From an uncultured Alphaproteobacteria bacterium (GTDB taxonomy: Bacteria > Pseudomonadota > Alphaproteobacteria > CAAGCB01 > CAG-977): DNA of 64,000 nucleotides. The translations under genes were made by a program, and so were the position numbers. The notes under the pieces are model-generated. The model worked only from the letters and a program-made list of their open reading frames with translations, did no database searches and was not told the origin of the DNA. This document shows positions 23,044 to 64,000 of this stretch, piece by piece. The stretch is from NCBI GenBank assembly GCA_944390195.1, contig CALXOZ010000007.1:18443-82442 (forward strand), written 5' to 3'. Within the stretch, counting starts at the first letter, position 1. Every line of letters starts with the position of its first letter.

Positions 23044-23056
23044 GAAAGGGCGAAAA

Positions 23057-23829: not shown

Positions 23830-23898
23830 ATGCATTCTGGTAAGTGTAAAATGCACCAGTTTAAATTCGTAAAACGTGTGGTTGTTTTTAGATTGTAA
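23830..23898 (+). CDS. Candidate small ORF (22 aa, MHSGKCKMHQFKFVKRVVVFRL) with a canonical AGGAGG SD.
   Basis: AGGAGG at 23817-23822, 7 nt before the ATG. Below the ORF-track size cut-off. Basic peptide in an otherwise empty 420-bp intergenic region. Confidence 0.2.
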   Translation: MHSGKCKMHQFKFVKRVVVFRL

Positions 23899-23995
23899 AG
23901 AGCACTTTTATTGATGCCGGAAAAATTTTTCACCGGTCAGGGTGAGTTCTTCTTGTTTTCCGAAATGAAACCGATAGAAGGGGTTCCCGTTATGA

Positions 23996-24505
23996 TCAAG
24001 TGTCAAGTTTGCAAAAATATAAGGTATTCGTATCCGTGTCGAATAACCCGATGGTAAGGTTGAAAGAAAATCTTTGCAAAATATCAACTTTTGATTCCGT
24101 GTTATTTTTAACCTGCCTGTCAATCAACAAATAATATCCGTTTCGGATTTCCGGAACCAAGGCGTTTCCGTTATTGTCGTTTAAATATGGTCCGTCGCTG
24201 TGTGTTTTATGCGAAATTCCATAAACCAATGTCCGGACGGTTTGATCAAGAGGAAAGGAACGCCAAAAAGGGTTGGATTTTATTTCTGTAACAACCGTGT
24301 TGTCCTCAAAACTGAAAGTAACGCAAGAGGTTCCATCTCCGTTTCCGCTATGAGTGTCATAATTTGAAATTTCTTTTCCGGCGGACACATCAATTCCAAG
24401 TTCTTTTGAGGCGGTATGTCGGACAGATTCCGGACTGCAGGCAATTAAAATAAAAAGTGAAAGAAGAAAAATACACCCAGCTGAAAAAACTTTTTTCATA
24501 AACAT
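23996..24505 (-). CDS. Hypothetical lipoprotein.
   Basis: Track ORF 23996-24538. The likely start is MFMKKVFSAGCIFLLSLFILIACS, with signal peptide and lipobox LIAC. No family recognised. Confidence 0.45.
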   Translation of the reverse strand: MFMKKVFSAGCIFLLSLFILIACSPESVRHTASKELGIDVSAGKEISNYDTHSGNGDGTSCVTFSFEDNTVVTEIKSNPFWRSFPLDQTVRTLVYGISHKTHSDGPYLNDNNGNALVPEIRNGYYLLIDRQVKNNTESKVDILQRFSFNLTIGLFDTDTNTLYFCKLDT

Positions 24506-25154
24506 ATTTATTTCCAATATATTTGCCTTTGTTGACAATTACGATCATATTATTATATGTTTTCTTGTTTTTTTCGACAAGTTCGGAAATTATATTGTAA
24601 GAATGTTATTATGCTTTGAATAAAAGACGCCGCCTGAACTGTAGCGTGCATGTAAAAAGCATATTATAGTCATTGAAACAGATGACAGCGTAAGAATAGT
24701 TCGGGCAGAATTTTTTTACTCTTTAAGATAATATTAAAAATTGATGTTGCTTCATTAATGCTTTTTTTTACATCACAACGGCATCGTATTGAAAATAAAA
24801 TTTTTATTATACAGTTTTTAATCGTTGCCATACGACATTATCGTTTTATCATAAAAAATATAAACGAATTTGCCATGGAATGGTGAAAATATCAGGGCAG
24901 TGTTTTTTTCTATGCTGTCATTTATAATTTCATTTTAGAATATTAAGTATTTCGTTTCTCTGTATTCAAAGCGATATCCGTTTTTTCTCGGGTATAAAAA
25001 ATACTTTCCGGATCATACTTTTTCCTTCTGATACATGAGGAACACTTGTCAGGCATAGAACGTCTTGCAAGAACCAAATGTCTAATTACTGAAGGTTTTT
25101 CCTCTTTAACAAAGCAGTCTTTTAAAAAGAATAACACCTTATGTTGCGATAAGT

Positions 25155-26630
25155 TTAAAAAGCAGTTGAACGCACGGATTTTTTTTCTTTTCGCCAAGCT
25201 AATGGCAAAAGGAGAACGAAAATCGTCATGTATTCCAATCGTCCCAGCATCATTCCGATGGAAAAGATCCATTTTCCCATATCTGGCAGATTGGCGAAAT
25301 GACCGCTTGAACCGATGACGGGACCGAATGCTATGCCGGTGTTCCCCAGAGCGCACAAAGTTCCGCTGATAACAGTCAGGAAATCAAGTCCCAGTAAAGA
25401 TAAAGACAAAACGGAGCACAAAAAGGAAATCAAAAAAATGGCAATGAAAACAAATACGTCAGAAGAAATTTCTTCTGTAATGGGTTTGCCGTTATATTTG
25501 GCGACGAAAATGCCGTGTGGCAGGATTTTCCGTCTAAGGTACTGTAAGGAAGACAGAAACATGATATTGAATCTGAAGATCTTGATGCCGCCGGAGGTTG
25601 ATCCGCTACACGCACCGACAGATAAGGATAAAGTAAGAAAAGTGATTGCGAAATTTCCCAATTGTTCCAAATCCGTATTGACGAAACCGGTTGAAGTGAT
25701 GATGGAAATGAAATTAAAAGCGGCTATGCGCAAGCTGTCAGCAAAAGACTTGTCTCTCATCAGGCAAAGGTAGGAGGTTAAGAGCAGGATGCAAATCAGG
25801 ACGCAAAAGACGTATGTTTTTATTTGCAGATCATTTTTCAAGCTTTTCCAATTTTTTTTGAACAATAGGTAAAAGGACAACAAAGGCATACCGGAAATAA
25901 ACATAAAAAACGCCAAAATCCATTGTGAAGAGTAATTCAGATCTATGGCCGACGTATTTCTGGGAGCCAATCCACCGGTCGGAATCGTTCCCATTGTAAA
26001 AATTAGTGATTCAAAAGAATCCAATCCTGAAAAGCACAGGCAAAGTGTACACAATATTGTCAATAGTGTATAAACGATCATGATTCTGGCTATGATCTGG
26101 GACGTTTTCGGTAAAGTCTTATCGGATTTGTCTGAAGATTCAGTCGCATACAATTGCATACCGCCGATCCGTAAAAGCGGTAATATTCCCAAAGCAATCA
26201 CGATAATTCCGATGCCTCCGAACCATTGCAACATACCTCGCCATAACAGGATGCCTCTGGGTTGAATGGACAAATCCCGTATGATTGTAGAACCTGTTGT
26301 TGTCAATCCGGACATGGCTTCAAAAAAAGAATCCGTATAGCTTAAAGGATATTGTGAGAAAAAGAAAGGCAATGCCGAAAAGCAACAAACCATCAGCCAG
26401 ACAAGCGATGTCGTCAAGTACATTTCCCGTACGGTTAATTTTTCATATTTATTGTAAAAAGTCGCCGTGAACAAAAGACCGAAGAAAACAGTTACAACCG
26501 AAGCCTGCCAAAATCCGTAAGCCGATATGACATTGTCATCAAAAAAATCAAGCATTCCCGGAATGATCATCGTAATTCCGAACAAAATCAGGATACATCC
26601 CGAAACAAAGAAAGTGATGCCGGCTCTCAT
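25155..26630 (-). CDS. trkH: Trk-type potassium uptake protein TrkH.
   Basis: 491 aa polytopic protein. SGLTTTGSTII and GxTTxG-like selectivity-filter repeats are typical of the TrkH/KtrB family. Confidence 0.85.
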   Translation of the reverse strand: MRAGITFFVSGCILILFGITMIIPGMLDFFDDNVISAYGFWQASVVTVFFGLLFTATFYNKYEKLTVREMYLTTSLVWLMVCCFSALPFFFSQYPLSYTDSFFEAMSGLTTTGSTIIRDLSIQPRGILLWRGMLQWFGGIGIIVIALGILPLLRIGGMQLYATESSDKSDKTLPKTSQIIARIMIVYTLLTILCTLCLCFSGLDSFESLIFTMGTIPTGGLAPRNTSAIDLNYSSQWILAFFMFISGMPLLSFYLLFKKNWKSLKNDLQIKTYVFCVLICILLLTSYLCLMRDKSFADSLRIAAFNFISIITSTGFVNTDLEQLGNFAITFLTLSLSVGACSGSTSGGIKIFRFNIMFLSSLQYLRRKILPHGIFVAKYNGKPITEEISSDVFVFIAIFLISFLCSVLSLSLLGLDFLTVISGTLCALGNTGIAFGPVIGSSGHFANLPDMGKWIFSIGMMLGRLEYMTIFVLLLPLAWRKEKKSVRSTAF

Positions 26631-37194: not shown

Positions 37195-37212
37195 TATTGC
37201 CACAAATTCCAT

Positions 37213-37244
37213 AAAAACAGAGAGGGGAGCCTCTCTGTTTTTTT
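37213..37244 (+). terminator. Intrinsic terminator after eno.
   Basis: CAGAGAGG-ggag-CCTCTCTG stem followed by a 7-T run, 19 nt after the stop. An A-run precedes it, so it could act bidirectionally. Confidence 0.8.
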
Positions 37245-37845
37245 ATGGGGAAGATATGGTCTTTCCTTGTTTTGCAAAAACAGACAAGTGATCCTTGCTT
37301 GTTGAAGATAAATAAAATGTCGTAACAGACGAAGCCTGAAAACGGAAAGCGGATTATTTATAAGGCAAAAAAATACTTGGAAAAATCTTTTTATTTGAAG
37401 TTATTTAAAATCATATTTTATGGATCGTTAAATGCGAATAGAATTCAATTTGTTAAATATTATAAGTTTGAAATTTATGGATACGAGAATTGTTGTTTAT
37501 CTTATGAATTTATAGAAGCCTGTTATTTTTGTTTTGAAATTTTTTATGGTAAGAGGCTTTTATAAATGTTCTAAAAAATCCGGAATTGAAGTGGGACGAA
37601 GAAAGGCGGCTTATTTTGAAATGTTTCTCTTGTTTGCTCCTGTTACTTAAGTTTTGATGCAGTGATCTTATTTGAAAATTAAAGGTTTTTCAAAAACTTT
37701 CTGGTTGCCCTTTTTCCTCCGACGGAAATTCTTGCCGGATTGGAACAAAGAGGTGTCTTTGTGTTTTTTGTAGAATATCATCAATTTTTTATGATTGGAA
37801 AAATGATTAAAAGGCGGGGCGATAATTTAAAAGCGCTCCGGAAAC

Positions 37846-37870
37846 GGGTGGAGAGGGGGAGGGAGAGGGG
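37846..37870 (+). repeat. G-rich tract matching a canonical G-quadruplex motif (GGG-N6-GGGGG-N1-GGG-N3-GGGG).
   Basis: GGGTGGAGAGGGGGAGGGAGAGGGG is conspicuous within a roughly 900-bp AT-rich non-coding region. Confidence 0.5.
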
Positions 37871-38097
37871 AGTTTGGAAAGGCCGTCCGTTATCATATTA
37901 CAACTGAGAATTGGAATGGAGTGTGTTATAGGCTTATTATGGAAAAGTTTTAAAAGAAAATGAAATATTCGGAGAAAAACGTCAAAATCATTTAAAAATC
38001 TTTTTGTTTTTTCCGGTTGATATTAGTCTTATGGCATATGTTGCAGTTCTTTTGAACTGTTTTGAAAAGCAATGGGTGTTACACAGTCTGTTTGGCA

Positions 38098-38124
38098 TGA
38101 AAAATCCCGCATTTTATGCGGGAT
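38098..38124 (-). terminator. Intrinsic terminator of the 38150-38602 lipoprotein gene.
   Basis: Minus-strand ATCCCGCAT-aaa-ATGCGGGAT stem followed by TTTTTC, 26 nt after the stop. Confidence 0.65.
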
Positions 38125-38149
38125 CTCTTTTCGGTAATTGAATGAAAAT

Positions 38150-38602
38150 CTATTCTTCGCTGAAAATACGATAAGCCTCTGCCGGATCGTCAGTGTCCTG
38201 TACTTTCAAGTCCATCGGGCAAAGTCCAGTTTTCGTCCGGTTGAGTATATTATCCAATACTTGGTCGGCGCTGTATTTTATACCATATTTTTCATAGATT
38301 TTAATTGCCGGCTTAGATATGACCGGTGTGTAAACTTCTTTGACTTGTCCGTAGACGTGTAATAACGCTGATGCTTTTCCAACAATGCGGTCTGCGACAA
38401 AAGCGTCTTTGAACGTGCCGTCATTCAAACGGATTAATAAAGGATCAAGGCCTCTTTCATCATAAAATGTTGTTTTTCCGTCTTTATATACGATAAGGGT
38501 ATGTTCCTTTAACTGATTACGAAGGAAATCCGTGTCAGGACGTTTTGACATTGAACAAGCTATTAATAAAATAGTCATCAAGCCGATAAAAAAAGATTTC
38601 AT
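38150..38602 (-). CDS. Hypothetical lipoprotein.
   Basis: 150 aa. Signal peptide plus lipobox LIACS. No family recognised. It has its own terminator and is flanked by long non-coding DNA. Confidence 0.5.
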   Translation of the reverse strand: MKSFFIGLMTILLIACSMSKRPDTDFLRNQLKEHTLIVYKDGKTTFYDERGLDPLLIRLNDGTFKDAFVADRIVGKASALLHVYGQVKEVYTPVISKPAIKIYEKYGIKYSADQVLDNILNRTKTGLCPMDLKVQDTDDPAEAYRIFSEE

Positions 38603-39090
38603 AATATCAACTCCATAAAAAAGGACATTAGAGAATACAAACCTAAAAAAGTTTTAAGTCAATACAAAAAAGTACATATTTTAAAGGTTTTTTTTACTGT
38701 TGAAAATCTGTTTTACGGATTTATGTAACAGAATAAAGAAAAAGCTATTTTAATCATTGTATGACAATAATGTAGAGACTGATTGATTTGCCATAAAGCG
38801 AAGGGGAAACATAATCTGAAAGAAGGGAAAAAGAAGTCTGTTTATGAAAGATTTCTTCGCCTATTTCCAGTTTTTAAGGTTAATAAAGGTATAAAATGAG
38901 TATAAAGAAGCTAGTTATAAATTTTAATTTTTTATAATATTGTCATCTTTAGCCTTAAAAAATCAATTTGATATAAAGCACTTTGTGGATTTCCATTCAT
39001 TTTTAAAAATCAGGAATGCATTGAAAATATTATTGAATTTTTGTGTGGGCAATGTCATTCAGTTAAAAAAATCTGTCATACGAAAAACGG

Positions 39091-39275
39091 TTTTTCATAT
39101 ATTTATTGGTCTGTATTTTTTGTTGCCGGTTTTATGGTAAAAATTGAACGCCTATGATAGGCATGACAACACGATCGTCTTTAAGCTGATTTAATTGTAG
39201 GAAATTGTTCTGTCATGTATTGGTGAATGTTAAAAATATAAAATAATACAGGATCATCTTTAAAGATGCTTTTTT
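39091..39275 (+). repeat. Copy 1 of a dispersed composite non-coding element, ending in palindrome plus T-run. Candidate sRNA or MITE-like repeat.
   Basis: Three blocks are nearly identical to the reverse complement of 49554-49681. Block A (39091-39134) is TTTTTCATATATTTATTGGTCTGTATTTTTTGTTGCCGGTTTTA. Block B (39215-39237) is ATGTATTGGTGAATGTTAAAAAT. Block C (39252-39275) is GATCATCTTTAAAGATGCTTTTTT. Copy 1 carries an extra 80-bp insert between blocks A and B. Confidence 0.6.
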
Positions 39276-39892
39276 AACAAAATATCCCAAGCTCAAAGCG
39301 AGAGACGCTTTTTATTTCCGTTCAGTCTGGCGGAGTGGCAACCTCTTTGGAGTTTGAACCGCAGGCACGATTTAAAAGACGCTTTCTTAACAAGTGTCTC
39401 CAACACAAGTTTACATCCATACTTTTCTTACATATATGGATATCACCGTATTTTTCTGTAAATCCCCCGTACTCCCATAAACCGGAAATTACCTTATTTA
39501 TCCGACTTTTCATTCCTCATTTTTCCCAAAAACGATCGAACAGAACGCGTTTAATAAATCACAACCGCTTAAAAAAGATGTGCTCGCCGCCTCACTGGGC
39601 TAAACAACCTCTCCATAAACATCAAAAAAACAAAATATACAAAATACTTTATCCCATTAATCTCAGAGAATATTTTCTCTCGATCATTCAATAAACAGGA
39701 ATATACCTAACCACTAAAACACTTCACACTCTTTCACAGGCAATACAAAAAAATGTTTTCTATTCTTTTTTATAAAAAACATCTCATCTCTGTTCATTCC
39801 TACTAAAAAAACATACCTAAGCTCATTCCTAAAAAATAAGGGCGAATCCTGTGAAACTTTTTTATTCTATAAAACCGCAGAATTGTTTTTCA

Positions 39893-39925
39893 CAAAAAAA
39901 ATCCTCCAAGACAGGAGGATTTTTC
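39893..39925 (-). terminator. Intrinsic (bidirectional) terminator, about 200 nt downstream of the pmm-like gene.
   Basis: AAAAAAATCCTCC-aagaca-GGAGGATTTTT. The 7-8 bp GC-containing stem has an A-run on one side and a T-run on the other. Confidence 0.55.
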
Positions 39926-40077
39926 GTTTTACGGATATAAAAAAACATTTAAGCCTTTTGAAATGATGAGTTATAGCCCACTTCTTTTATTGTTTCAAAA
40001 GATAAATATCTTTGCCAGTACTTTAAAAGACATATATCAAATGTAAATCTTTTAAATTTATTCTAGAATAAAGACAA

Positions 40078-40123
40078 AATATGGCAAAAATATGGTTTGA
40101 ATTATGGCGAATTATGGCAAGGA
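40078..40123. repeat. Iteron-like direct repeats (A/T)TATGGC(A/G)A, four copies at about 10-14 bp spacing.
   Basis: aaatATGGCAAAaatATGGtttgaaTTATGGCGAaTTATGGCAAgg, immediately 3' of the pmm stop (40132). Confidence 0.4.
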
Positions 40124-40131
40124 AGCCTTAT

Positions 40132-43290: not shown

Positions 43291-44097
43291 TTACGAAGAG
43301 ATGTCTTCTCCTATTGCCTGCAAAATGGCGCGTAATTCTTGTCTTGCTGCGATGTGAGGCATTGACATTGAGATTCCCACCTTGGGTTTTCCGACATCAA
43401 GAAGCGTCAATCCTTTTAAAAAAAGTTCTCTGAACACGACCCGTTCCCCCAATCCGGACAAAGCTGTAAAATTGATTCTTTTACCCAAGGCTTCCAGCAA
43501 CTTCCAAATCAATTTTTCATTTCGTGTCGAAACATGCATCATACGGTTGCGCAAAACGAACCATCTTGTTTGAGGCTTTTTTTGCGAAGCGCGTTGTTGG
43601 CGTGCCTGCCAAACGGTTTGAGCATAATGTGCCGGAGATTTGATCGTCAGTGTTTCCGGTTCGATTTGAGCCAGAACATCCAAATCAATCAGACTGTCGT
43701 TCAACGGTGTAATCAAAACGTCTGCGACAACATGAGCCAAACGGAACAAATAGCTGTCTGCCCCCGGTGTGTCGATGATGATCACATCGTTTTCTTTTTG
43801 CAATTTGTCCAGTTGTTTTATAAAAGCGTCTTCATCTTCTTTTCTTTGTTGGGGATCGGGGTTTGCGCGCACAGTTACACTAAGGTGTACGGGCAGTTCC
43901 AAAGCGACATGATGCAATTCGGCATAATCCGCCCTGTTTTGAATATAATGAGTCAACGTCCCTTGACGCCCGTCCAGATCAATTGAAGCGACCGTCTTTT
44001 TTTGATGTAGCAACCAAGCTATCAAATGCATTGCCAACGTTGATTTTCCGGTACCGCCTTTTTCGTTACCGATTACAATTATTTTCCCTTTCGGCAT
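43291..44097 (-). CDS. mipZ: ParA/MinD-superfamily ATPase of the MipZ type (division-site positioning).
   Basis: Track ORF runs to 44145. The ATG at 44097 (MPKGKIIVIGNEKGGTGKSTLAMHL) gives a deviant Walker A GNEKGGxGKST, which is characteristic of MipZ rather than ParA (KGGVGKTT). About 268 aa. Confidence 0.7.
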   Translation of the reverse strand: MPKGKIIVIGNEKGGTGKSTLAMHLIAWLLHQKKTVASIDLDGRQGTLTHYIQNRADYAELHHVALELPVHLSVTVRANPDPQQRKEDEDAFIKQLDKLQKENDVIIIDTPGADSYLFRLAHVVADVLITPLNDSLIDLDVLAQIEPETLTIKSPAHYAQTVWQARQQRASQKKPQTRWFVLRNRMMHVSTRNEKLIWKLLEALGKRINFTALSGLGERVVFRELFLKGLTLLDVGKPKVGISMSMPHIAARQELRAILQAIGEDISS

Positions 44098-44176
44098 AAG
44101 TATCCCCGCTTTTTTTTGAACAGATCCTAACCAGCGGAAGACCAAAATTCAAGATTTTTAAATTCGATAAAAAAAT

Positions 44177-44206
44177 CACGATTTATTTGTTATTTTTTTC
44201 ACGATT
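44177..44206 (+). promoter_or_regulatory. Direct repeat TCACGATT(T/A)A, two copies spaced 22 bp apart, upstream of hydC.
   Basis: TCACGATTTA at 44177-44186 and TCACGATTAA at 44199-44208. The two-helical-turn spacing suggests a direct-repeat operator. Confidence 0.3.
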
Positions 44207-44213
44207 AAGACTT

Positions 44214-44257
44214 GCTTTTAACGCATCGAAAGTTTAAAACTTAAAATGCGTAAAAGC
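44214..44257 (+). promoter_or_regulatory. Nested 44-bp palindrome 60-100 nt upstream of the hydC start, either an operator or a 5'-UTR hairpin.
   Basis: GCTTTTAACGCAT-cga-AAGTTTAAAACTT-aaa-ATGCGTAAAAGC. The outer arms are complementary apart from one extra A. The inner 13-bp palindrome is perfect. Confidence 0.35.
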
Positions 44258-44315: not shown

Positions 44316-44822
44316 ATGAGTGAAACGACAGGGCATGAAATATCAGCCTTTGATAAAATAGAAAAGGTCAAGGAGATTTTGGATAAGAATGGTCGCCAAA
44401 GTTCTCGATTGATCCCCATTTTGCAGGAAGTACAGGAAGTTTACCGTTACCTGCCTAAGGAAATTATGAATTATGTTGCACAAGCGCTCGGCATTCCTGC
44501 CGGTCGTGTTTACGGTGTTGCGACGTTTTACGCCCACTTTTCTTTAGACCCTAAAGGGCGTTACTTAATCCGTTTATGCGACGGCACAGCCTGTCATGTA
44601 CGCGGATCGGAACCGATATTGCACGCTTTACGTGACAAATTGGGATTGAGCGCGGAAAAACCAACAACCGATGATATGATGTTTACAATTGAAACCGTTT
44701 CCTGTCTGGGCGCTTGCGGTTTGGCTCCGGTCGTCGTTGTGAACGAAGACGTTCATGGACAAATGACACCGGATAAAGCGGTTAAAATGATTGATGATAT
44801 TTTGCAGGCGGAGAATTCTTGA
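44316..44822 (+). CDS. hydC: NuoE-like [2Fe-2S] thioredoxin-fold subunit of a trimeric [FeFe] hydrogenase (HydC/HndA type).
   Basis: 168 aa. Cys pattern C...C-x35-CxxxC (RLCDGTACHVRGS...VSCLGACGLAP) typical of NuoE/HydC. The stop overlaps the hydB start. Confidence 0.8.
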   Translation: MSETTGHEISAFDKIEKVKEILDKNGRQSSRLIPILQEVQEVYRYLPKEIMNYVAQALGIPAGRVYGVATFYAHFSLDPKGRYLIRLCDGTACHVRGSEPILHALRDKLGLSAEKPTTDDMMFTIETVSCLGACGLAPVVVVNEDVHGQMTPDKAVKMIDDILQAENS

Positions 44823-46723
44823 TGACTGAAAATTTGGAAAAAATTGCTTCTGACTACAAAGCAATGCACGACACCGTAACCCGCCGTATGGTAATTTGCG
44901 CAGGGACGGGGTGTATTGCAAACGGATCGTTGAAACTGTACGAAGCCCTTTTAAAAGAAATTCAAAAAGCCGGTATCAATGTCGCTGTTGAATTGAAATC
45001 CGAAGACCATAATAAAAAATCTCTGTTATCCAAAAGCGGCTGTCAGGGATTTTGTCAGATGGGACCTTTGTTGACAATAGAACCGGACGGTATTTTATAT
45101 TGTCGCGCACATGCGGCGGATGCTGCTGAAATCGTAGAAAAAACACTTAAAAATAACGAATTGATTGACCGTTTGGTCTATAAAAACCCGACGGACGGTT
45201 CTCATTGCCGCGGGACGAACGACATTCCGTTTTATACACGCCAACGTCGTACCGTTTTAAAAGCCTGCGGTCATGTCAATCCGGAAGATATTCGCGAATA
45301 TATTTATCATGACGGTTATAAAGCTGCTCAAAAAGCCTATACGGAAATGAGTGATGAAGACGTTTGCAAAGAAATTTTGGATTCCGGTTTGCGCGGACGT
45401 GGCGGCGGCGGTTTCCCGACAGGTTTGAAATGGGATTTGACCCGTAAAGTCAAAGGTGAGAAAAAATACGTTATTTGTAACGCTGATGAAGGCGATCCGG
45501 GGGCTTTTATGGATCGTTCCGTTATGGAAGGCAATCCTCACTCCGTTATTGAAGGAATGATGATCGCCGCAAGGGGAATCGGTGCCGATGAAGGTTACAT
45601 TTATGTCCGTGCCGAATATCCCTTGGCTGTCAAGCGTATGCGTAAAGCCATTGAGGACGCTCAAAACATCGGCGTTCTGGGACACGACATCTTCGGTTCC
45701 GGTAAAAATTTCATCCTGCACGTCATGGAAGGGGCGGGCGCGTTCGTTTGCGGTGAAGAAACAGCATTAATGGCTTCCATTGAAGGCTCGCGCGGTATGC
45801 CGCGTCCGAAACCGCCTTTCCCAGCTCAGTCGGGGTTGTGGGGAAAGCCGACGGTCATTAATAACGTTGAAACTTTAGCAAGCGTTCCGATGATCATTCT
45901 GCACGGTGCCGCGAATTACCGCTCCGTCGGTACGCAAAAATCCCCTGGAACAAAAACATTTGCAGTAACGGGGCATGTCGCAAACACAGGCTTGATCGAA
46001 GTCCCCTTTGGAACGACTTTGCGTGAAATCATCTTTGATATCGGCGGCGGCGTCTTGAACGCAAAAGGCGAAGTCGATAACGATAGTTTCAAAGCCGTGC
46101 AAATCGGCGGTCCGTCCGGCGGATGCCTGACTGCGGAACATTTGGATTTGCCGATTGATTTCGATTCTTTGCGTTCTGCAGGCGCTATGGTCGGTTCGGG
46201 CGGTCTTGTCGTCATGAACAAAAACACTTGCATGGTCAGTGTCGCCCGTTTCTTTATGCAATTTACGCAAAACGAATCATGTGGCAAATGTACTCCGTGC
46301 CGTGAAGGAACAAAACAAATGCTCGCCCTGCTGGATGATATCATGGCGGGTCGCGCTACCGAAGAAACTCTGGATCTGTTGGAAGAAACCGCTAAAACCG
46401 TCCAAAAAGCCTCTTTATGCGGTTTAGGTAAGACAGCTCCGAATCCGGTATTGTCCACTTTACGTTATTTCCGGGACGAATATTTGGCGCATGTACGCGA
46501 TAAAACATGCCCAACCGGTCAATGCAAAGCTTTGGCAAAACCGGAAATCGATCCGATTCTGTGCCGCGGTTGTACCGCGTGCGCACGGAAATGTCCTGTC
46601 GGGGCCATATCTGGAACGGTTAAAAAACCACATGTTATTGATCCGACAAAATGTATTAAGTGCGGTGTTTGCGCCGCAACGTGTAAGTTCGGTGCCGTAA
46701 AAGGCATCGCTCCCCGTGCTTGA
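44822..46723 (+). CDS. hydB: NuoF-like NADH-binding flavoprotein subunit of a bifurcating [FeFe] hydrogenase (HydB/HndC type).
   Basis: The track ORF starts at TTG 44819, but the ATG at 44822 (TGATG overlap) is preferred. An N-terminal thioredoxin-like 2Fe-2S domain is followed by the NuoF core (GLRGRGGGGFPTGLKW FMN/NADH site; the CxxCxxC N3 cluster appears as ESCGKCTPCREG). Two 4Fe-4S ferredoxin motifs sit at the C-terminus. Confidence 0.85.
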   Translation: MTENLEKIASDYKAMHDTVTRRMVICAGTGCIANGSLKLYEALLKEIQKAGINVAVELKSEDHNKKSLLSKSGCQGFCQMGPLLTIEPDGILYCRAHAADAAEIVEKTLKNNELIDRLVYKNPTDGSHCRGTNDIPFYTRQRRTVLKACGHVNPEDIREYIYHDGYKAAQKAYTEMSDEDVCKEILDSGLRGRGGGGFPTGLKWDLTRKVKGEKKYVICNADEGDPGAFMDRSVMEGNPHSVIEGMMIAARGIGADEGYIYVRAEYPLAVKRMRKAIEDAQNIGVLGHDIFGSGKNFILHVMEGAGAFVCGEETALMASIEGSRGMPRPKPPFPAQSGLWGKPTVINNVETLASVPMIILHGAANYRSVGTQKSPGTKTFAVTGHVANTGLIEVPFGTTLREIIFDIGGGVLNAKGEVDNDSFKAVQIGGPSGGCLTAEHLDLPIDFDSLRSAGAMVGSGGLVVMNKNTCMVSVARFFMQFTQNESCGKCTPCREGTKQMLALLDDIMAGRATEETLDLLEETAKTVQKASLCGLGKTAPNPVLSTLRYFRDEYLAHVRDKTCPTGQCKALAKPEIDPILCRGCTACARKCPVGAISGTVKKPHVIDPTKCIKCGVCAATCKFGAVKGIAPRA

Positions 46724-46740
46724 ATGAAAGGTGAAGCTTG

Positions 46741-48723
46741 ATGACTGAAAAGAAAACTCTGTTCATTGACGGCAAAGAAGTCGTAATCGAAAATGAACGC
46801 AATATTTTAGAGCTGTGCCGTAAAGCGGGGATCGATATCCCGACGTTTTGCTACCAGCCGGAATTGAGTATCTATGGCGCATGCCGGCTATGCTTGGTTG
46901 AAATCGAAGGCAGAGGTATTTTGTCTTCGTGTTCCACACCTCCTGAAGCAGGCTTGAAAATAAAAACAAATACGGATGAAATCCGTCAATTGCGCCGTAC
47001 GACAATGGAATTGCTGTTGGCGTCCCATCCTCAAGATTGTTTGAAGTGCGGGAAAAGTACACACTGCAAATTGCAGGAAATCGCCCGTAAGGTGGGAGTA
47101 AAAGAAATCCGTTACAAACATTCGGTCAAAGACCTGCCGGTAGATAACAGTTCTTATTCTTTGGTGCGTGATCCCGCAAAGTGTATTTTGTGTGGCAATT
47201 GCGTGCGGATGTGCGCTGAAATTCAGGGAATCGGAGCCGTCAACTTTGCCAATCGCGGATCAAATAGTACGGTTATTACGGCGTTTGGTAAGGATATGGC
47301 TAAAACGGAATGTGTCAACTGCGGTCAATGTGCCGCCGTTTGCCCGACCGGAGCGTTACAAATCAAGTCTGAAATTGATGAAACAATGAAAGACATCAAC
47401 AATCCCGAAAAGATAACGGTTGTCCAAATAGCTCCGGCCGTCCGTGTCGCCATAGCAGAAGAATTTGGTCTGCCTGCCGGTGTGGATTCAACGAAAAAGA
47501 TTGTTTCCGCTTTAAAAAAGATCGGTGTCGATTATGTTTATGATACCAACTTTACAGCAGACATGACGATTGTCGAGGAAGCCACTGAATTTGTACAACG
47601 CTTACAGAACGGCGGCACATTCCCGATGTTTACCTCATGTTGTCCGGCATGGATCAAATATGCGGAAACGTATTATCCGTCTTTATTAAAGAACATCAGT
47701 TCCTGTCGTTCTCCGCAAGGAATGTTTGGCGCAATCGTGCGTAAAGCGATGCCTGGCGTTACCGGAAAAGACAACAAAGATATCGTTTCGATTTCCATTA
47801 TGCCCTGCACGGCCAAAAAGTTCGAAGCCCGTCGCGATCAGTTCATTCATGACGGCAAAGCGGAAATTGATCATGTCCTGACAACGCAAGAATTGGCTGA
47901 GATGTTGAAATCAGCCGGTATCAATCTGGCGGAAATCGATGATGTCGAATTGGATATGCCGTTAGGCATGTACACCGGTGCCGGCGTTATTTTCGGCGTT
48001 ACCGGAGGCGTGATGGAGGCCGTGTTGCGTTTTGCTGCGGAAAAAGTCGGCGGCGTCAAAGACGCAATTGAATTTAAAAACGTTCGCGGTTTTGAAGGCA
48101 TTCGTGAAGCTGAAGTCGAATTAAACGGCAGAACGTTCAAATTAGCGGTTGTTCATGGGTTGGCGAATGCCGGAAAAGTGGCTCAATCCGTTATTGATGG
48201 AACATGTAAGTATGATTTGATCGAAGTGATGGCTTGCCCGATGGGATGTGTCGGCGGTGCTGGACAGCCTGTCAGCGAAGGTTGTGTCAAAAAGAAACTT
48301 CGTGCTCAAGGATTATATAAGGCTGATGAATCGTGTGCATTGCGTAAATCTCAAGAGAACACAGCTGTTTATGACGTTTACGAAAAATACTTTGAAGGTG
48401 GTCCCGCAACACATGCGGCGCATGAGAATCTACATACGACATATGTTTGCCGACCGAAAACGGAAATGGAAATGAGCATCAATAAGGCTGATAAGGATGC
48501 TGTTCGAGTCGAGCTGAATTTATCAGGTGAAAATATGCGCAAAGGTGTTGAAAACCTGATGGGTGACGTTTTGGCGAAAATCCGTGAGAACGACTTGCAA
48601 AAACGAACAAAAGTCGTAGTTACTTTTGGACATACGGGAGAGGATCCGATGGTTTCAGTCGCTGGAAAAGCGGTTAATCCTGATGTGGACGATGTTATAA
48701 AAGCCATTATTGAGAATAAATAA
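46741..48723 (+). CDS. hydA: [FeFe]-hydrogenase catalytic subunit (group A, HydA) with N-terminal 2Fe-2S and 4Fe-4S domains.
   Basis: All three H-cluster motifs are present: L1 TSCCPAW, L2 MPCTAKKFE and L3 EVMACPMGCVGGAGQP. N-terminal plant-type 2Fe-2S (CRLC...C) and F-cluster CxxCxxCxxxCP motifs. Track ORF starts at TTG 46738; the ATG at 46741 sits after a GGTGAAG SD. Confidence 0.85.
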   Translation: MTEKKTLFIDGKEVVIENERNILELCRKAGIDIPTFCYQPELSIYGACRLCLVEIEGRGILSSCSTPPEAGLKIKTNTDEIRQLRRTTMELLLASHPQDCLKCGKSTHCKLQEIARKVGVKEIRYKHSVKDLPVDNSSYSLVRDPAKCILCGNCVRMCAEIQGIGAVNFANRGSNSTVITAFGKDMAKTECVNCGQCAAVCPTGALQIKSEIDETMKDINNPEKITVVQIAPAVRVAIAEEFGLPAGVDSTKKIVSALKKIGVDYVYDTNFTADMTIVEEATEFVQRLQNGGTFPMFTSCCPAWIKYAETYYPSLLKNISSCRSPQGMFGAIVRKAMPGVTGKDNKDIVSISIMPCTAKKFEARRDQFIHDGKAEIDHVLTTQELAEMLKSAGINLAEIDDVELDMPLGMYTGAGVIFGVTGGVMEAVLRFAAEKVGGVKDAIEFKNVRGFEGIREAEVELNGRTFKLAVVHGLANAGKVAQSVIDGTCKYDLIEVMACPMGCVGGAGQPVSEGCVKKKLRAQGLYKADESCALRKSQENTAVYDVYEKYFEGGPATHAAHENLHTTYVCRPKTEMEMSINKADKDAVRVELNLSGENMRKGVENLMGDVLAKIRENDLQKRTKVVVTFGHTGEDPMVSVAGKAVNPDVDDVIKAIIENK

Positions 48724-48739
48724 AAACGAATAGTGCAAT

Positions 48740-48772
48740 AAAGCCCTCTGTGCAAGTCAGAGGGCTTTTTGT
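48740..48772 (+). terminator. Intrinsic terminator of the hydCBA operon.
   Basis: AAAGCCCTCTG-tgcaagt-CAGAGGGCTTT stem followed by TTTT, 17 nt after the hydA stop. Confidence 0.8.
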
Positions 48773-49290
48773 ATATGGGACATTTTGTACTGAAAGGTGA
48801 TTATAAAACAAAAGAAGTCAACATACATTTTAGAGAAATATCTGAAGATAAATATTAAAGTTCAAAATAAAGAGTATGTTTAGGAAAAATGCGAAAGGAG
48901 ATAAAAAACATTTTTTTTCATTGTAGGTGGAATACAGTGATGTGTTTAAGCATATTCCGGTTTATCGAATAACTGTTTTTTTTTGAGACCGATTGGAAGA
49001 TTCGATTTTATATATTCCAGCTATGCCAGAGAGATTGTTTTGGCAAATGGTCGATGAGGAACACCTGATATTTCAAATCTTTTTTTAACGGTTGTGATTT
49101 GACAAATGTGGTTTATTCGATTGTTTTCATGATAATGAAGGATAAAAAAACAAATAAATAAGATGCATTTTCGTTTTAAGGGGTAAATTGTTTTCAAGTT
49201 TATGAAGGATGAAAGAGGATGGGGAAAGAGTCAGAAGTACGAGAATATCCGGAAATGCAAGAAACATATGAACAGAACCGTGCACTTGGG

Positions 49291-49548
49291 ACACCTTGTT
49301 AAGAAGGCGTCTCTTAAGGCTTTTGAATAATTCGAAAAACGTAACAGTTGAGAGCGAATAGTGGTCTTTAACTTTATATTCGGTACACCTTGTTAAGAAG
49401 GCGTCTCTTAAGGCTTTTGAATAATTCGAAAAACATAACAGTTGAGAGCGAACAGTGGTCTTTAACTTTATATTCGGTACACCTTGTTAAGAAGGCAGCT
49501 CTTAAAGCATTTGAATAATTCGAAAAACGTAACAGTTGAGAGCGAACA
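49291..49548. repeat. Tandem array of a 94-bp unit, about 2.75 copies, non-coding.
   Basis: Units begin at 49291, 49385 and 49479; the third is truncated after about 70 nt. Identity between units is 95% or higher. Each carries an internal palindrome TTAAGA-aggcgtc-TCTTAA and TTCGAA. The 94-bp period is not a multiple of 3. The track ORF 49374-49562 lies inside the array and is spurious. Confidence 0.9.
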
Positions 49549-49553
49549 AAGGG

Positions 49554-49681
49554 AAAAAGCATCTTTAAAGATGATCTTGCATTGTTTTAAACATTTTTAA
49601 CATTCCGCCAATACATAACCAAACACTTCCTTATATTAAAACCGGCAACAAAAAATACAGACCAATAAAATATATGAAAAA
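49554..49681 (-). repeat. Copy 2 of the dispersed composite element (blocks A, B, C), lying 83-210 nt downstream of the mutL stop on the minus strand and abutting the 94-bp tandem array.
   Basis: The reverse complement matches copy 1 blocks A (49637-49681), B (49593-49616) and C (49554-49576). Block C, read on the minus strand, is GATCATCTTTAAAGATGCTTTTT, a palindrome plus T-run. It could double as the mutL terminator. Confidence 0.6.
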
Positions 49682-58434: not shown

Positions 58435-59169
58435 ATGTCATTTGTTTTTCCTGTCGTCTTCGGTCATAGGGGAGCCAAAGCGGTTGAAATCGAAAACACA
58501 ATAGAAGCTTTCAGGTATGCTTGTCAATCGGGCGTTCGTTGGGTTGAATTGGATGCGATGCTTTCCAAAGACAAACAACCGGTGGTGTTTCATGATGAAA
58601 CTTTGGATCGCTTAAGCGGTGTACACGCCCGTTTAGACCAATTGACGTTAAAAGAATTAAAGGAAGTTTCTTTGATTAATGACAGACGGATACCCACTCT
58701 TGATGAAGTCTTGGACTGCTTGAACGGGTACGACGGCGGCGTTAATATCGAAATAAAACCTTCTTGCCGGCAAGCGGAGCGCGAAACGGCGCAAAAGGTC
58801 TGGCAAGTCGTTCGTCAAAAGGGGTTCGACGATCCGAAAAGAGTGTTCTTTTCAAGTTTCGCTTGGGATTCTTTGGAAGAAATCGGAAAAATAGCTCCCC
58901 ATATAAAAAGAGGACTGCTGCTTGAGGATCTTCGTCCTGATTGGCGTTTCTTCGCTCGTAAAATTCAAGCCTACTCGATTAACTGTGACGCTCGTTTGTT
59001 GACTGTATCATTAATCAATGAGATAAAAAAAGCGGGGTATCGTTTAATGGCGTATACCGTTAACGACCCCGCTCAAGCTGTTTATCTTTACCGTCATGGT
59101 GTTGACGGCTTTTTTTGCGATGATCCCGTTTCCATGATTGAGGTTTTGAAGAACGTTCAGCGCCTTTGA
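58435..59169 (+). CDS. Glycerophosphodiester phosphodiesterase (UgpQ/GlpQ family).
   Basis: 244 aa. The HRG motif (FGHRGA), ENT, VELD and the HDET-like motif (FHDETLDR) are characteristic of the GDPD family. Confidence 0.8.
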   Translation: MSFVFPVVFGHRGAKAVEIENTIEAFRYACQSGVRWVELDAMLSKDKQPVVFHDETLDRLSGVHARLDQLTLKELKEVSLINDRRIPTLDEVLDCLNGYDGGVNIEIKPSCRQAERETAQKVWQVVRQKGFDDPKRVFFSSFAWDSLEEIGKIAPHIKRGLLLEDLRPDWRFFARKIQAYSINCDARLLTVSLINEIKKAGYRLMAYTVNDPAQAVYLYRHGVDGFFCDDPVSMIEVLKNVQRL

Positions 59170-59885
59170 GCGATGACGCATTGGTACATATCTCCAAAAA
59201 ACGTCTTTTTCACCCAGATGAGTTTGTCTGTTTCAGGGGCAAAGTCCTTGATTTCGTTATACCAAAGGCTTTCAGCGAATGGCTCGTACAAACGGTTGAA
59301 CAACTTGACGGGATATTTTAACAAATGAAATTTTTGAGGGCGGGCATAGTCGATAAAAATCATTTTCCCTCTTGATTTTAAAGCGTTGAATGCTCTTTTC
59401 AATGTGGCTTTTTTGCGTGCGTCCGGCAGTTCGTGTAACACAAAATAGCCAAGCACGACATCATAACGGCAATCATTTTCTATTGTAAAATCCCGTTTTT
59501 TCATTTCCACATTCAACCAAGGCGAAACTCGCCGCTTTGCGGCTTGGATATGGGCGAAGGAAACGTCTTCAATGTGATAAACCCCCTGCGAATCCATTCT
59601 TGAAGCAACGTTTCTTTCAAATGAACCCGACGCTATCCCCAACTGCAAAACATCATTGCCGGGAACGATTTCGCTGGTAACGATTTTGGTTAATTTCCTG
59701 CCGTAAAAAAAATTCCCGAGTCCCGCGACCCATTCGTCATCGAAAAATTTTGATAAAAACGGATCCAGATAACGTCGTTTGTACACGGATTGTAAATATT
59801 CGGGAATGTGAGACTTTTCCTTTTTGGAAGAAAGTCCAGAGGAAGTTAATGAAGTAGAGGAAGTGTCGTTTTTATTTTCAGTCAT
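59157..59885 (-). CDS. Class I SAM-dependent methyltransferase with a low-complexity Ser/Thr-rich N-terminus.
   Basis: 242 aa. Rossmann-like methyltransferase core (VLQLGIASG..., DVVLGYFVLHELPD). The N-terminus MTENKNDTSSTSLTSSGLSSKKEKS is low complexity. Substrate unknown. Confidence 0.5.
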   Translation of the reverse strand: MTENKNDTSSTSLTSSGLSSKKEKSHIPEYLQSVYKRRYLDPFLSKFFDDEWVAGLGNFFYGRKLTKIVTSEIVPGNDVLQLGIASGSFERNVASRMDSQGVYHIEDVSFAHIQAAKRRVSPWLNVEMKKRDFTIENDCRYDVVLGYFVLHELPDARKKATLKRAFNALKSRGKMIFIDYARPQKFHLLKYPVKLFNRLYEPFAESLWYNEIKDFAPETDKLIWVKKTFFGDMYQCVIAQRR

Positions 59886-61823: not shown

Positions 61824-62459
61824 TTACTCTTCATCCTCTTTTTGTAAATTCCTGCAAGCGAACTGTAAAAAGCTGGCAATCAGATTTTCATTCCACACTT
61901 TAATATTATGAGGGACTTTTAAAACTGCCGGTGTGAAATTCCAAATATACTTTATATTGGAGTCGATCAAGAACTCGGCTGTTTTTTGCGCGCAAGCGCG
62001 TGGTACAGTTAAAATGGCCAGTTCTATTCCCAACCGTTGCATCAGATTGGGCAAACGGGAAATATGAAAAATTTGTTTGTTATTGACAGTCATGTCGACT
62101 TTTTGAGGGTCGTTGTCAAACAAAGCCAATATGTTCAGACCGTAGTCGTTAAAGGCACTGTATTTCGCCAAAGCCAGTCCTAAATGTCCGGCGCCGACGA
62201 TAACGGCATCTTTGGTCATCTTAAATCCCAAAGTGTCTTCAATCGAATCCTTTAGCGCGTGCACGCTGTAACCGACACGGCAACGACCGGCATTGTTGAG
62301 CAGCTTGAAATCCTTTCGCACTTGAGAATCGTCGATATTCAAGCGTGCGGCGATTTGCGGGCTGGAAATCGTGTCAATATCGTTATCAATGTATTCTATC
62401 AGAATACTGTGGTAAAGCGTCAAGCGTCCCAGTACTTTTTCAGGGATTTCTGTTTTCAT
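61824..62459 (-). CDS. rex: Redox-sensing transcriptional repressor Rex (NADH/NAD+ sensor).
   Basis: The ATG at 62459 gives MKTEIPEKVLGRLTLYHSIL... The winged-helix N-domain, the Rossmann motif AVIVGAGHLG, and the AILTVP and NFTP motifs match Rex. The track ORF starts at TTG 62477. Confidence 0.8.
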   Translation of the reverse strand: MKTEIPEKVLGRLTLYHSILIEYIDNDIDTISSPQIAARLNIDDSQVRKDFKLLNNAGRCRVGYSVHALKDSIEDTLGFKMTKDAVIVGAGHLGLALAKYSAFNDYGLNILALFDNDPQKVDMTVNNKQIFHISRLPNLMQRLGIELAILTVPRACAQKTAEFLIDSNIKYIWNFTPAVLKVPHNIKVWNENLIASFLQFACRNLQKEDEE

Positions 62460-62645
62460 GGCAATTCCTAAATTCAAATACCCTTTAAGATCGACAGTTT
62501 AGGCTGAAAAAGTAAAAAAATCCAGTCTGGATTTCATTTATTTGAGATTTTTTTCACTATTTCAAACGGCACAGAAATAAAGGATTTTTCTGAAAAATAT
62601 TTTCTGTAACGATTGATTTTTGTTCTTTGTTAAGCTAGATTTTGC

Positions 62646-62659: not shown

Positions 62660-62682
62660 TAATTCCAAAGATGAGGAAAATA

Positions 62683-62955
62683 ATGTCCGAAAACGGGAAA
62701 ATAGCCATTACAGTGTGTATGGGAAGTTCATGTTTTGCACGCGGGAATGCGGAAAATCTGTCTTTTATTGAAAATTTTGTTAAAGAAAAAAAATTGGATG
62801 CTAAAATCGATTTGTGCGGGGCACGTTGTGAAAACAAATGTGCGACAGGGCCGCATGTGAAAATCAACGGTACGGTATATTGCGGTGTTACGCCGGAAAT
62901 GCTTAAAGCCGTCTTGAATAAAGCTGTGGAAGGAAATAAAGTTGTAGAAGGATAA
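62683..62955 (+). CDS. Thioredoxin-like [2Fe-2S] ferredoxin (NuoE/HndA-type), standalone.
   Basis: 90 aa from the ATG at 62683, preceded by an AGGA SD. Cys motif CMGSSCFARG...CGARCENKCATGP (Cx4C...Cx3C). Confidence 0.7.
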   Translation: MSENGKIAITVCMGSSCFARGNAENLSFIENFVKEKKLDAKIDLCGARCENKCATGPHVKINGTVYCGVTPEMLKAVLNKAVEGNKVVEG

Positions 62956-62959
62956 TTCA

Positions 62960-64000
62960 ATGGATAAATCCAGTCCCGTATATACCTTGGAAAATGAATG
63001 TCATGATTGTTATAAATGTGTACGCCAATGCAGTGTGAAAGCCATTCGTGTTAAAAACGGGCACGCATCGGTGATAGCGAATAAATGTATTGCTTGCGGG
63101 CATTGTGTTGAAATTTGTCCTTCAAAGGCGAAACGTGTCCGCGATGATGTCAATAAAGCCAGAGCCTTGTTGGCATCGGGAAAGGACGTTTATGTTTCTT
63201 TGGCTCCAAGTTGGGCGGGGTTACTGGATTGTTCCAAACATGAAATCGTATCGGCATTAAAGCAATTGGGGTTTAAAGGGGTTTCGGAAACCGCTTTGGG
63301 GGCGCAGGAAGTTTCCATAGAAACAACGAAAATCATTTCCAATTCTGAACGTAATTTGTTCATTTCAACCGCTTGCCCCGCCATTGTCGATTACATCCGT
63401 TATTATTTGCCGGAATATACTCCTTATTTAACACCGATTGCTTCTCCGGCATTGACGCATGCCATGTTTTTAAAAAAGACTTACGGTGAAGAAATCGGTG
63501 TCGTCTTCATCGGTCCGTGCATTGCCAAAAAAAACGAAGCCGACCGCCATCCCGATTTAATCAATGTTTCTTTGACATTTAAAGAATTAATGGCTTGGCT
63601 TGAGGAGGCGCGCATCACATTAAAAGCTCCGGTTGATCCTTGTGAAACTTTCGTTCCGTATGAAGCTGATGAAGGGGCTTTGTACCCCATAGAAGGCGGA
63701 ATGAACAAAACAATAGAGATATGCGGGGCTCCGAAAGATATCCAGCTCATTAACATCAGTCCGGTGCAACGGTTTAAAGCGGCTTTGAAAAATTTGGATC
63801 CCGACACCTTAAAACGCAAGGTGTTTATCGAGGCTTTGGCTTGTGAAGGCGGGTGCACGGCAGGACCGGGGGCGAATTCGTCCAAAGCCGGATTGGAAGT
63901 GGTTTCGGATATTTTAAATTATTCTCATTTGCGCGAACGGGTGCCGGATCAGCCAGAAGTCGTTGTTAATGAAAAGTTTGATCCCGCTCCGATCGAAAAA
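62960..64000 (+). CDS. Partial (3'-truncated) putative sensory-type [FeFe]-hydrogenase-like protein (group C/D, HydS-like).
   Basis: Not in the ORF track because it runs off the window. ATG at 62960 follows a GAAGGA SD. Two 4Fe-4S ferredoxin motifs sit at the N-terminus (CHDCYKCVRQC...CIACGHCVEICP). The H-cluster motifs are variant: L1 STACPAIV (TSCCP with the first Cys changed to Ala), L2 GPCIAKKNE, and L3 EALACEGGCTAGPG. Confidence 0.65.
   Translation, partial: MDKSSPVYTLENECHDCYKCVRQCSVKAIRVKNGHASVIANKCIACGHCVEICPSKAKRVRDDVNKARALLASGKDVYVSLAPSWAGLLDCSKHEIVSALKQLGFKGVSETALGAQEVSIETTKIISNSERNLFISTACPAIVDYIRYYLPEYTPYLTPIASPALTHAMFLKKTYGEEIGVVFIGPCIAKKNEADRHPDLINVSLTFKELMAWLEEARITLKAPVDPCETFVPYEADEGALYPIEGGMNKTIEICGAPKDIQLINISPVQRFKAALKNLDPDTLKRKVFIEALACEGGCTAGPGANSSKAGLEVVSDILNYSHLRERVPDQPEVVVNEKFDPAPIEK

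Follow-up and report, generated by a model that had tools for sequence, protein, structure and literature searches.

A 64,000-nt stretch of contig CALXOZ010000007.1 (assembly GCA_944390195.1) from an uncultured Alphaproteobacteria bacterium of the CAG-977 lineage, hereafter referred to as the window, carries three co-directional genes, hydC, hydB and hydA, which translation of the open reading frames (ORFs) places at 44316-48723 on the (+) strand. Their products probably form a heterotrimeric flavin-based electron-bifurcating or electron-confurcating [FeFe] hydrogenase of the HydABC (Bfu) family. In HydB every cluster ligand is conserved, as are the motifs for flavin mononucleotide (FMN) and NADH, and the best matches of all three proteins are bifurcating complexes, and therefore a bifurcating-type enzyme is the best reading of the operon. 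An earlier sequence-only reading had arrived at a trimeric NADH/ferredoxin-dependent enzyme of this type, and the best solved relatives of each of the three subunits, all of them bifurcating HydABC/Bfu complexes, point in the same direction. Electron-confurcating hydrogenases let fermenters shed NADH as H2 and are the main source of H2 in gut and rumen ecosystems.

HydB comprises a weak N-terminal PF01257 match, Complex1_51K (the FMN domain), SLBB, NADH_4Fe-4S and two Fer4 domains according to Pfam and NCBIfam. Among solved structures, the Bfu HydB of A. mobile is its best match (7t2r_B, 811 bits, 60.7% identity), followed by the HydB subunits of T. kivui (769 bits), Thermotoga maritima (741 bits) and A. 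woodii (739 bits), whereas Nqo1 of complex I reaches only 383 bits. In the alignment each cluster-ligand Cys of A. mobile HydB has a Cys counterpart in the window protein. These comprise the N-terminal [2Fe-2S] ligands C26/C31/C74/C78, the NuoF-type [4Fe-4S] ligands C487/C490/C493/C533, the hinge-site residues C563/C568 and the ligands C581/C584/C587/C591 and C611/C614/C617/C621 of the ferredoxin-like domain. The description of HydB as a NuoF homologue with an N-terminal thioredoxin-like 2Fe-2S domain and a C-terminal 2x[4Fe-4S] domain is thus confirmed by domains and ligands. The FMN/NADH motifs, the lack of which had been named as a sign to the contrary, are retained: GGGGFPTG and GAGAFVCGEETAL, together with the Bfu-type DPGAFMDR, are identical to those of bifurcating enzymes. 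The stretch PGAFMDRS is the same as in A. mobile HydB and covers A202 and M204, with F182 ambiguous in this alignment, which contains no non-bifurcating control sequence. HydC is a NuoE-type thioredoxin-like [2Fe-2S] protein (PF01257, 179 bits), as had been proposed. Its best solved match is T. maritima HydC (7p5h_C, 180 bits), with which the CxxxxC...CxxxC ligands align.

In HydA, Pfam recognises Fer2_4, the NuoG His-ligated 4Fe-4S region, two Fer4 domains, Fe_hyd_lg_C (PF02906; 319 bits, cutoff 22) and Fe_hyd_SSU. The score against TIGR02512, the model for [FeFe] hydrogenases of group A, is 498.8 bits and lies above the cutoff of 405.95. The H-cluster motifs are FTSCCPAW (L1), IMPCTAKKFE (L2) and EVMACPMGCVGGAGQP (L3), and the canonical group A signatures listed in the sequence-only reading (TSCCPAW, MPCTAKKFE and EVMACPMGCVGGAGQP) were all found in the translation. 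In an alignment of 41 sequences the L1-L3 residues, including a GAGQP variant, are invariant, as are E279, E280, E283, R287 and S324 (window numbering). The segments assigned to the proton path are TSCC, ADMTIVEEATEF, VQRL and RSPQGMFG, and we take their residues to correspond to C299, E279, E282, S319 and R286 of CpI. HydA1 of T. kivui (8a6t_A, 577 bits), HydA of T. maritima (515 bits) and HydA1 of A. woodii (504 bits) are the best solved matches, and the monomeric CpI ranks below the bifurcating HydA structures. An AlphaFold2 (AF2) model of HydA (pTM 0.80) retrieved 8a6t_A and 7p8n_a as top Foldseek matches and aligned with T. maritima 7p8n_a over 667 columns, C-terminal domain included. By its sequence, HydA is the catalytic subunit of an [FeFe] hydrogenase of group A, and its H-cluster motifs are intact. 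Fragments of the complex I subunits NuoEFG, i.e. of an NADH:quinone oxidoreductase, had been held out as the outcome that would speak against a hydrogenase. We rejected them, as the H-cluster domain follows the NuoG-like N-terminus of HydA, HydB favours Bfu HydB over Nqo1 and no nuo genes flank the operon.

Of the features by which Schut et al. (2022) recognise Bfu enzymes, a BfuB with the FMN/NADH site and all cluster sites and a BfuC [2Fe-2S] subunit encoded with BfuA and BfuB are present. The same work described non-bifurcating HydB homologues (S. wolfei Hyd1ABC, Nqo, R. eutropha, R. capsulatus Fdh) as lacking clusters B2-B5 and the Bfu-specific residues. This is relevant to an alternative in which the [FeFe] hydrogenase encoded by hydCBA would be non-bifurcating and use NADH only, as do Hyd1ABC of Syntrophomonas wolfei and HydAB of Syntrophus aciditrophicus. 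Such an enzyme needs no ferredoxin to form H2 from NADH, and does so only when the partial pressure of H2 is very low. The same three-subunit layout can occur in non-bifurcating enzymes (Losey 2020), and NCBIfam NF040763, the closest named model for HydA, bears the name 'NADH-dependent [FeFe] hydrogenase, group A6'. However, HydB of the window has ligands for all of the B2-B5 clusters, which is not the character of a non-bifurcating-type beta subunit, it has the Bfu-type PGAFMDR residues absent from the non-bifurcating homologues, and its best solved matches are all bifurcating. We thus consider an NADH-only enzyme distinctly unlikely and favour the bifurcating type, for which dependence on ferredoxin is predicted from the same comparisons.

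Several observations weigh against a bifurcating hydrogenase under Rex control. HydA scored 730.4 bits over residues 8-571 against NF040763 and missed the cutoff of 765, and formal membership in this model is therefore not reached. None of the ORFs of at least 300 aa in the 64-kb window, all of which were scanned, is of the radical-SAM or HydF type, so that hydE, hydF and hydG are absent from it, and the window scan likewise contained no gene for pyruvate:ferredoxin oxidoreductase (PFOR) and none for a ferredoxin other than the small [2Fe-2S] protein described below. The Rex-like boxes described below carry three mismatches each, and such matches are no commoner than chance across the window. 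Finally, sequence features separate the known bifurcating from the known non-bifurcating enzymes only empirically.

Absence of the maturase genes from the window also feeds the idea that the operon is an inactive relic that cannot obtain its H-cluster, and the older literature made a like argument for Rhodospirillum rubrum. On the other hand, the catalytic and ligand residues are all intact and have been kept across at least 15 species at 72-95% identity, and maturases have been reported for sister species of the clade. HydE, HydF and HydG are listed for sister gut genomes together with PFO, a short ferredoxin and a hydrogenase of a second type (Degli Esposti et al. 2016, PMC4967309), and the 'MAG Azo/Aceto' gut lineage combines RquA with an [FeFe] hydrogenase and HydE-G (Stairs et al. 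2018, PMC5953543). None of the outcomes named beforehand as speaking against the hydrogenase reading has arisen, the one on maturases having been checked in the window, which has none, and in the literature on sister species. A relic is thus highly improbable. A pseudogene was considered and rejected, and so was a formate-dehydrogenase-linked (A4) enzyme, as no formate dehydrogenase gene is adjacent.

For the bifurcating-type enzyme, a working scheme can be drawn up in which every step comes from homology to the solved complexes. NADH would bind HydB at the FMN, the C-terminal 2x[4Fe-4S] domain of the same subunit would exchange electrons with ferredoxin, and HydC would supply the [2Fe-2S] cluster beside the flavin. 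The NuoG-like Fe-S chain of HydA would carry electrons to the H-cluster, where protons would be converted to H2. The net reaction would be NADH + 2 reduced ferredoxin + 3 H+ <-> NAD+ + 2 oxidised ferredoxin + 2 H2, and Rex, which senses the NADH/NAD+ ratio, may tune the expression of hydCBA.

The physiological direction is most likely H2-producing, i.e. confurcating, with glycolytic NADH and reduced ferredoxin being reoxidised during fermentation, although our confidence in the direction is lower than in the enzyme type. The same enzyme, truly bifurcating, might instead act mainly in uptake, converting gut H2 to NADH and reduced ferredoxin that would feed a rhodoquinone-dependent fumarate respiration. 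HydABC enzymes are reversible, H2 is plentiful in gut and rumen, and a gene for the rhodoquinone-biosynthesis methyltransferase RquA (NF038261, 180 bits, cutoff 175) lies 10 kb off, between the two hydrogenase loci of the window and adjoining a LuxR-type response regulator gene. Beside rex, however, relatives have a fermentative module of the Ruminococcus albus type that comprises hydS with genes for a PP2C phosphatase and a group B hydrogenase (and adhE in L082). In the window we saw genes neither for fumarate reductase nor for complex I, and the direction cannot be read from sequence. Uptake as the main role therefore appears unlikely to us, if less so than an NADH-only enzyme, and H2 production by a confurcating HydABC remains our preferred view. 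Elsewhere in the window, a peptidase U32 family protein (9238-10491, (+) strand) matches TrhP, the prephenate-dependent tRNA U34 hydroxylase, best and UbiU, the anaerobic ubiquinone hydroxylase, next, both below cutoff. It could be tied to O2-independent quinone biosynthesis in a rhodoquinone-making anaerobe.

HydA departs from its T. maritima counterpart in the C-terminal domain. Its residues 572-660 can be aligned with the thioredoxin-like [2Fe-2S] domain at the C-terminus of T. maritima HydA, but the four Cys that hold cluster A5 in that enzyme are missing. The HydA tails of the nearest outgroup carry CxxxxC...CxxxC and align with the Cys-less tail of the window protein, and all four Cys have been replaced or deleted in the window and its close relatives. 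The tail gave no PF01257 match even at E<=10 and no Pfam match at all, whereas an outgroup tail matches PF01257 at 2e-9, and its identity was established by alignment and by the structure model, in which its blocks have a pLDDT above 90 and a beta/alpha fold. It diverges faster than the core of the protein (72% versus 94% identity to P0001, and about 50% versus about 78% in the mid range), and in other sublineages of the clade the domain is wholly deleted, leaving 575-587 aa. In T. maritima, cluster A5 was described as electronically isolated, and the C-terminal HydA domain is absent from other characterised bifurcating enzymes (Furlan et al. 2022, PMC9499530). Thus, loss of the Cys residues is no argument against function. 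As a speculative extension, which we think improbable as a whole, the gut clade may carry a natural HydABC variant in which the bridge domain is kept without A5 and deleted in sister sublineages, set in a complete Clostridia-style H2-homeostasis toolkit (Rex boxes plus the cluster of hydS, PP2C phosphatase and group B hydrogenase). If this were true and the cluster-free domain still served conformational gating, the clade would offer a ready evolutionary series for testing the role of the HydA bridge domain. In addition, the full anaerobic module of the clade would give a sharper edge to the debate on alphaproteobacterial donation of anaerobic enzymes to eukaryotes.

The operon is complete and lies next to mipZ, as had been stated: all three ORFs were recovered at their positions, and the divergent neighbour upstream of hydC was identified as mipZ by PF09140 (306 bits). 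The gene order hydC-hydB-hydA is presumably the same in T. maritima. The stop codon of hydC and the ATG of hydB share 1 nt (TGATG), in agreement with the 1-nt junction noted before, and the hydB ORF has an alternative upstream start at 44819. The spacer between hydB and hydA, previously given as 15 nt, was only approximately right. It measures 17 nt to the ATG at 46741, which is used by relatives, or 14 nt to an upstream TTG at 46738. A sigma-70-like promoter candidate (TTAACG-18-TAAAAT), found in a consensus scan and a consensus match only, falls inside a sequence block kept among close relatives. An intrinsic terminator graded strong begins 17 nt past the hydA stop, and its stem of 11 bp, six of them G-C, precedes the T-run TTTTTGTAT. 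The promoter-like site and the terminator bound hydCBA, which therefore appears to be a tricistronic unit. Searches of the window for tRNA genes and for Rfam families gave no matches.

Two near-identical 18-bp boxes lie upstream of hydC and of rex. The hydC box, TTGTTATTTTTTTCACGA, has three mismatches to TTGTGAANNNNTTCACAA. It is kept in the close relatives L002-L005 and L010 and has a one-base variant in L007, and its conservation does not extend to L011, L012 and L018, which are more distant. The second box, TTGAGATTTTTTTCACTA, lies in the divergent intergenic region between rex and fdx-hydS. It also has three mismatches, is identical in L081 and has a variant at the same place in L082. Across the window, the Rex consensus with up to three mismatches gave 9 matches against 8.5 expected, which is chance level. 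Thus, Rex control of hydCBA is suggestive and only a hypothesis, as it is carried by the position of the two boxes, their likeness to each other and their conservation in close relatives.

The rex gene itself (NF003994, 224 bits, cutoff 130) encodes the candidate regulator and adjoins a second hydrogenase locus. A small thioredoxin-like [2Fe-2S] ferredoxin of 94 aa (PF01257, 41.5 bits), whose gene is at the same position in L081 and L082, precedes a hydS-like ORF that is cut by the window end after 346 aa. The motifs of this ORF are sTACP in L1, with Ala at the position of CpI C299, GPC in L2, with Gly at M353, and ALACEGGC in L3. Its full-length relatives have about 569 aa with Fer4, Fe_hyd_lg_C, PF04060 and, in some of them, PAS. 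Stretches 9742-14638 of L081 and 9739-17463 of L082 were compared. In these syntenic stretches, the genes after hydS encode a SpoIIE-type phosphatase, a further small ferredoxin and a monomeric hydrogenase of group B (TIGR04105, 510, cutoff 450), with adhE after these in L082. The hydS-like ORF is accordingly classed by its residues as a sensory group C (HydS-type) protein, with the FeS domain, PAS domain and linked phosphatase of this class read from the full-length relatives. By analogy, the locus mirrors the R. albus-type H2-sensing module in an alphaproteobacterium.

A scan of species representatives of the GTDB revealed 18 loci with 70-95% HydA identity. All of them are from uncultured human-gut, rumen or horse-faeces metagenome-assembled genomes of 'Alphaproteobacteria' or 'Rhodospirillaceae', one being Acetobacter sp. 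CAG:977. The organism belongs to this uncultured gut and rumen clade, and the closest public HydA (L001) is 95% identical. The next HydA matches among the representatives, at 53% identity or less, are from Planctomycetota, Bacillota, Ignavibacteria, Sumerlaeota and Gastranaerophilales. In a neighbour-joining tree, whose taxon sampling is biased by the pattern search, the alphaproteobacterial HydA proteins are monophyletic (100/100 bootstraps) on a long stem among non-proteobacterial anaerobes. The neighbourhood of pgmG-pgm-mipZ and hydC-hydB-hydA is kept in at least 12 species of the clade, and the GC content of the operon (45-47%) compares with 43% for the window. Monophyly, synteny and GC pattern together would fit a single ancient gain of the operon by the gut clade's ancestor, with vertical descent since. 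That the nearest relatives of HydA outside the clade are non-proteobacterial anaerobes, at 56% identity or less, could also be taken to mean that the operon is not alphaproteobacterial at all and reached the contig through a binning or assembly chimera with Firmicutes or Planctomycetota sequence. Yet it is contiguous with mipZ, pgm and other housekeeping genes here, and the same holds for at least 12 independent assemblies of human, rumen and horse origin. Moreover, its GC content is near that of the window. We regard such a chimera as extremely improbable and an operon resident in the alphaproteobacterial clade as the appropriate view.

An anaerobic, fermentative alphaproteobacterium had been deduced before, and RquA, Rex, glycolytic genes and the HydS-type cluster in the window strengthen this deduction. 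Rarity of the combination within the class was rightly recognised, but calling it uncommon was overstated in that the literature already describes it for this very gut lineage: the operon, the HydEFG maturases and RquA are known from Degli Esposti et al. (2016) and Stairs et al. (2018). Novelty is accordingly low, because both the operon and its evolutionary implications are in print for the lineage. That an alphaproteobacterium should combine such a hydrogenase with the synthesis of rhodoquinone and with a module for sensing H2 bears on the lifestyle of the lineage and on the debated alphaproteobacterial ancestry of eukaryotic anaerobic metabolism, points that have been in the literature since 2016-2018. 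The window adds a clean and complete example and, as minor additions, the Cys-less C-terminal domain of HydA, candidate Rex operators and a repeat-flanked inversion.

This inversion comprises the 9.1-kb pgmG-pgm-mipZ-hydCBA block, which is inverted relative to its flanks in comparison with at least six relatives. It is apparent because a TM1506/DUF1893 gene (PF08973), which directly follows hydA on the same strand in relatives, here sits beyond the other end of the block, and because repeats flank the block. The repeats are the two arms of a degenerate inverted repeat of about 0.7 kb, non-coding and of low GC, made up of collinear inverted segments of 70-98% identity. The right arm holds a 94-nt tandem repeat (49288-49569, 2.7 copies, 95% matches) downstream of the hydA terminator. 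No copy of the inverted-repeat element was found elsewhere in the window or in relatives. An insertion sequence, a MITE or a phase-variation switch was rejected, since there is no recombinase close by and the promoters lie within the block. The position of the TM1506/DUF1893 gene directly after hydA in relatives suggests a conserved association with the hydrogenase operon. Two further genes come after it there, one of them DUF6782 metallopeptidase-like and the other thioredoxin-reductase-like. Coordinates of all these features are compiled in the table.

Table. Features of the hydCBA region and of the second hydrogenase locus (window positions).
Feature	Position	Strand	Remarks
TM1506/DUF1893 gene	38150..38602	-	PF08973; opposite side of block from hydA
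Inverted repeat, left arm	39091..39763		degenerate, ~0.7 kb
Inverted repeat, right arm	48901..49681		with 94-nt tandem repeat
mipZ	43291..44145	-	divergent from hydC
Candidate Rex-like operator	44187..44204	+	TTGTTATTTTTTTCACGA; upstream of hydC
Candidate sigma-70-like promoter	44218..44247	+	TTAACG-18-TAAAAT
hydC	44316..44822	+	NuoE-like [2Fe-2S] subunit, 168 aa
hydB	44822..46723	+	NuoF-like FMN/NADH subunit, N-terminal [2Fe-2S], C-terminal 2x[4Fe-4S]; 633 aa from ATG
hydA	46741..48723	+	catalytic subunit of an [FeFe] hydrogenase, group A (M3-type); 660 aa from ATG
HydA C-terminal domain	48454..48720	+	vestigial, thioredoxin-like; residues 572-660; all four [2Fe-2S] Cys lost
Intrinsic terminator	48740..48777	+	11-bp stem, then TTTTTGTAT
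rquA	59157..59885	-	rhodoquinone-biosynthesis methyltransferase
rex	61824..62477	-	redox-sensing repressor, candidate regulator
Candidate Rex-like box	62542..62559	+	TTGAGATTTTTTTCACTA; between rex and fdx-hydS
Ferredoxin gene	62671..62955	+	small, thioredoxin-like [2Fe-2S], 94 aa
hydS-like gene	62960..64000	+	sensory-type (group C) by its residues; cut by window end

Outside these loci, the context of rex and an acn-icd-glt branch cited in the sequence-only reading was recovered for rex, acnB and gltA, while the icd match is only weak and partial. The gene concerned (14206-15987, (+) strand) lies between acnB and gltA and encodes 593 aa, with only weak and partial matches to families of monomeric and dimeric isocitrate dehydrogenases (IDH), among them PF03971 with 57 bits across roughly one third of the model. 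Its product may be a divergent or unusual IDH-like enzyme. Positions 1590-9225 on the (+) strand encode a bacterial alpha-2-macroglobulin (1840 aa; A2M, bMG10, MG2) and, directly after it, a PBP1C-type penicillin-binding protein, the classic yfhM-pbpC pair. Two low-GC stretches (33-37%) at 37195-40131 and 22000-26000 hold few or no convincing ORFs, and the first includes the left repeat arm. ORFs without family matches in the 22-26 kb region are found at 20995-23043 (weakly kinase-like), 23057-23575 and 23996-24538.

The closest described counterpart of the window operon is that of Acetobacter sp. CAG:977 (Degli Esposti 2016, PMC4967309), which belongs to the same clade and has the same NuoE-like/NuoF-like/M3-type gene order and mipZ-pgm neighbourhood. 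Its locus, L011, shares 74% (HydA), 84-86% (HydB) and 78% (HydC) identity with the window. In contrast to CAG:977, the window represents a different species, has the operon block inverted between lineage-specific repeats and no longer has the TM1506 gene after hydA. The T. maritima HydABC complex (7P5H/7P8N; PMC9499530) consists of three homologous subunits, with an N-terminal [2Fe-2S] and a C-terminal 2x[4Fe-4S] 'bridge' domain in HydB and a C-terminal thioredoxin-like domain in HydA. HydA of the window is about 40% identical to its T. maritima homologue and lacks the four Cys of the A5 [2Fe-2S] cluster. The best solved matches are HydABC of T. kivui and A. woodii (8A6T, 8A5E) and the NiFe-HydABCSL complex of A. 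mobile (7T2R), and their HydB subunits have the same cofactor ligands as the window protein. Unlike the window protein, HydA of these three organisms is without any C-terminal domain, and in A. mobile a NiFe module takes the place of the H-cluster.

With regard to the wider gene set, Ruminococcus albus combines a bifurcating group A3 enzyme with an H2-regulated cluster of a sensory group C hydrogenase, a phosphatase, a ferredoxin-only hydrogenase and AdhE (Greening et al. 2019, PMC6776011). Similarly, the window contains hydABC together with rex, fdx and hydS, while the SpoIIE phosphatase, fdx and monomeric hydrogenase are found in the relatives L081 and L082, and adhE in L082. In contrast to R. 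albus, the host is alphaproteobacterial, the second catalytic hydrogenase is of NCBIfam group B1 instead of group A1, and hydCBA lies 14 kb from the hydS cluster.

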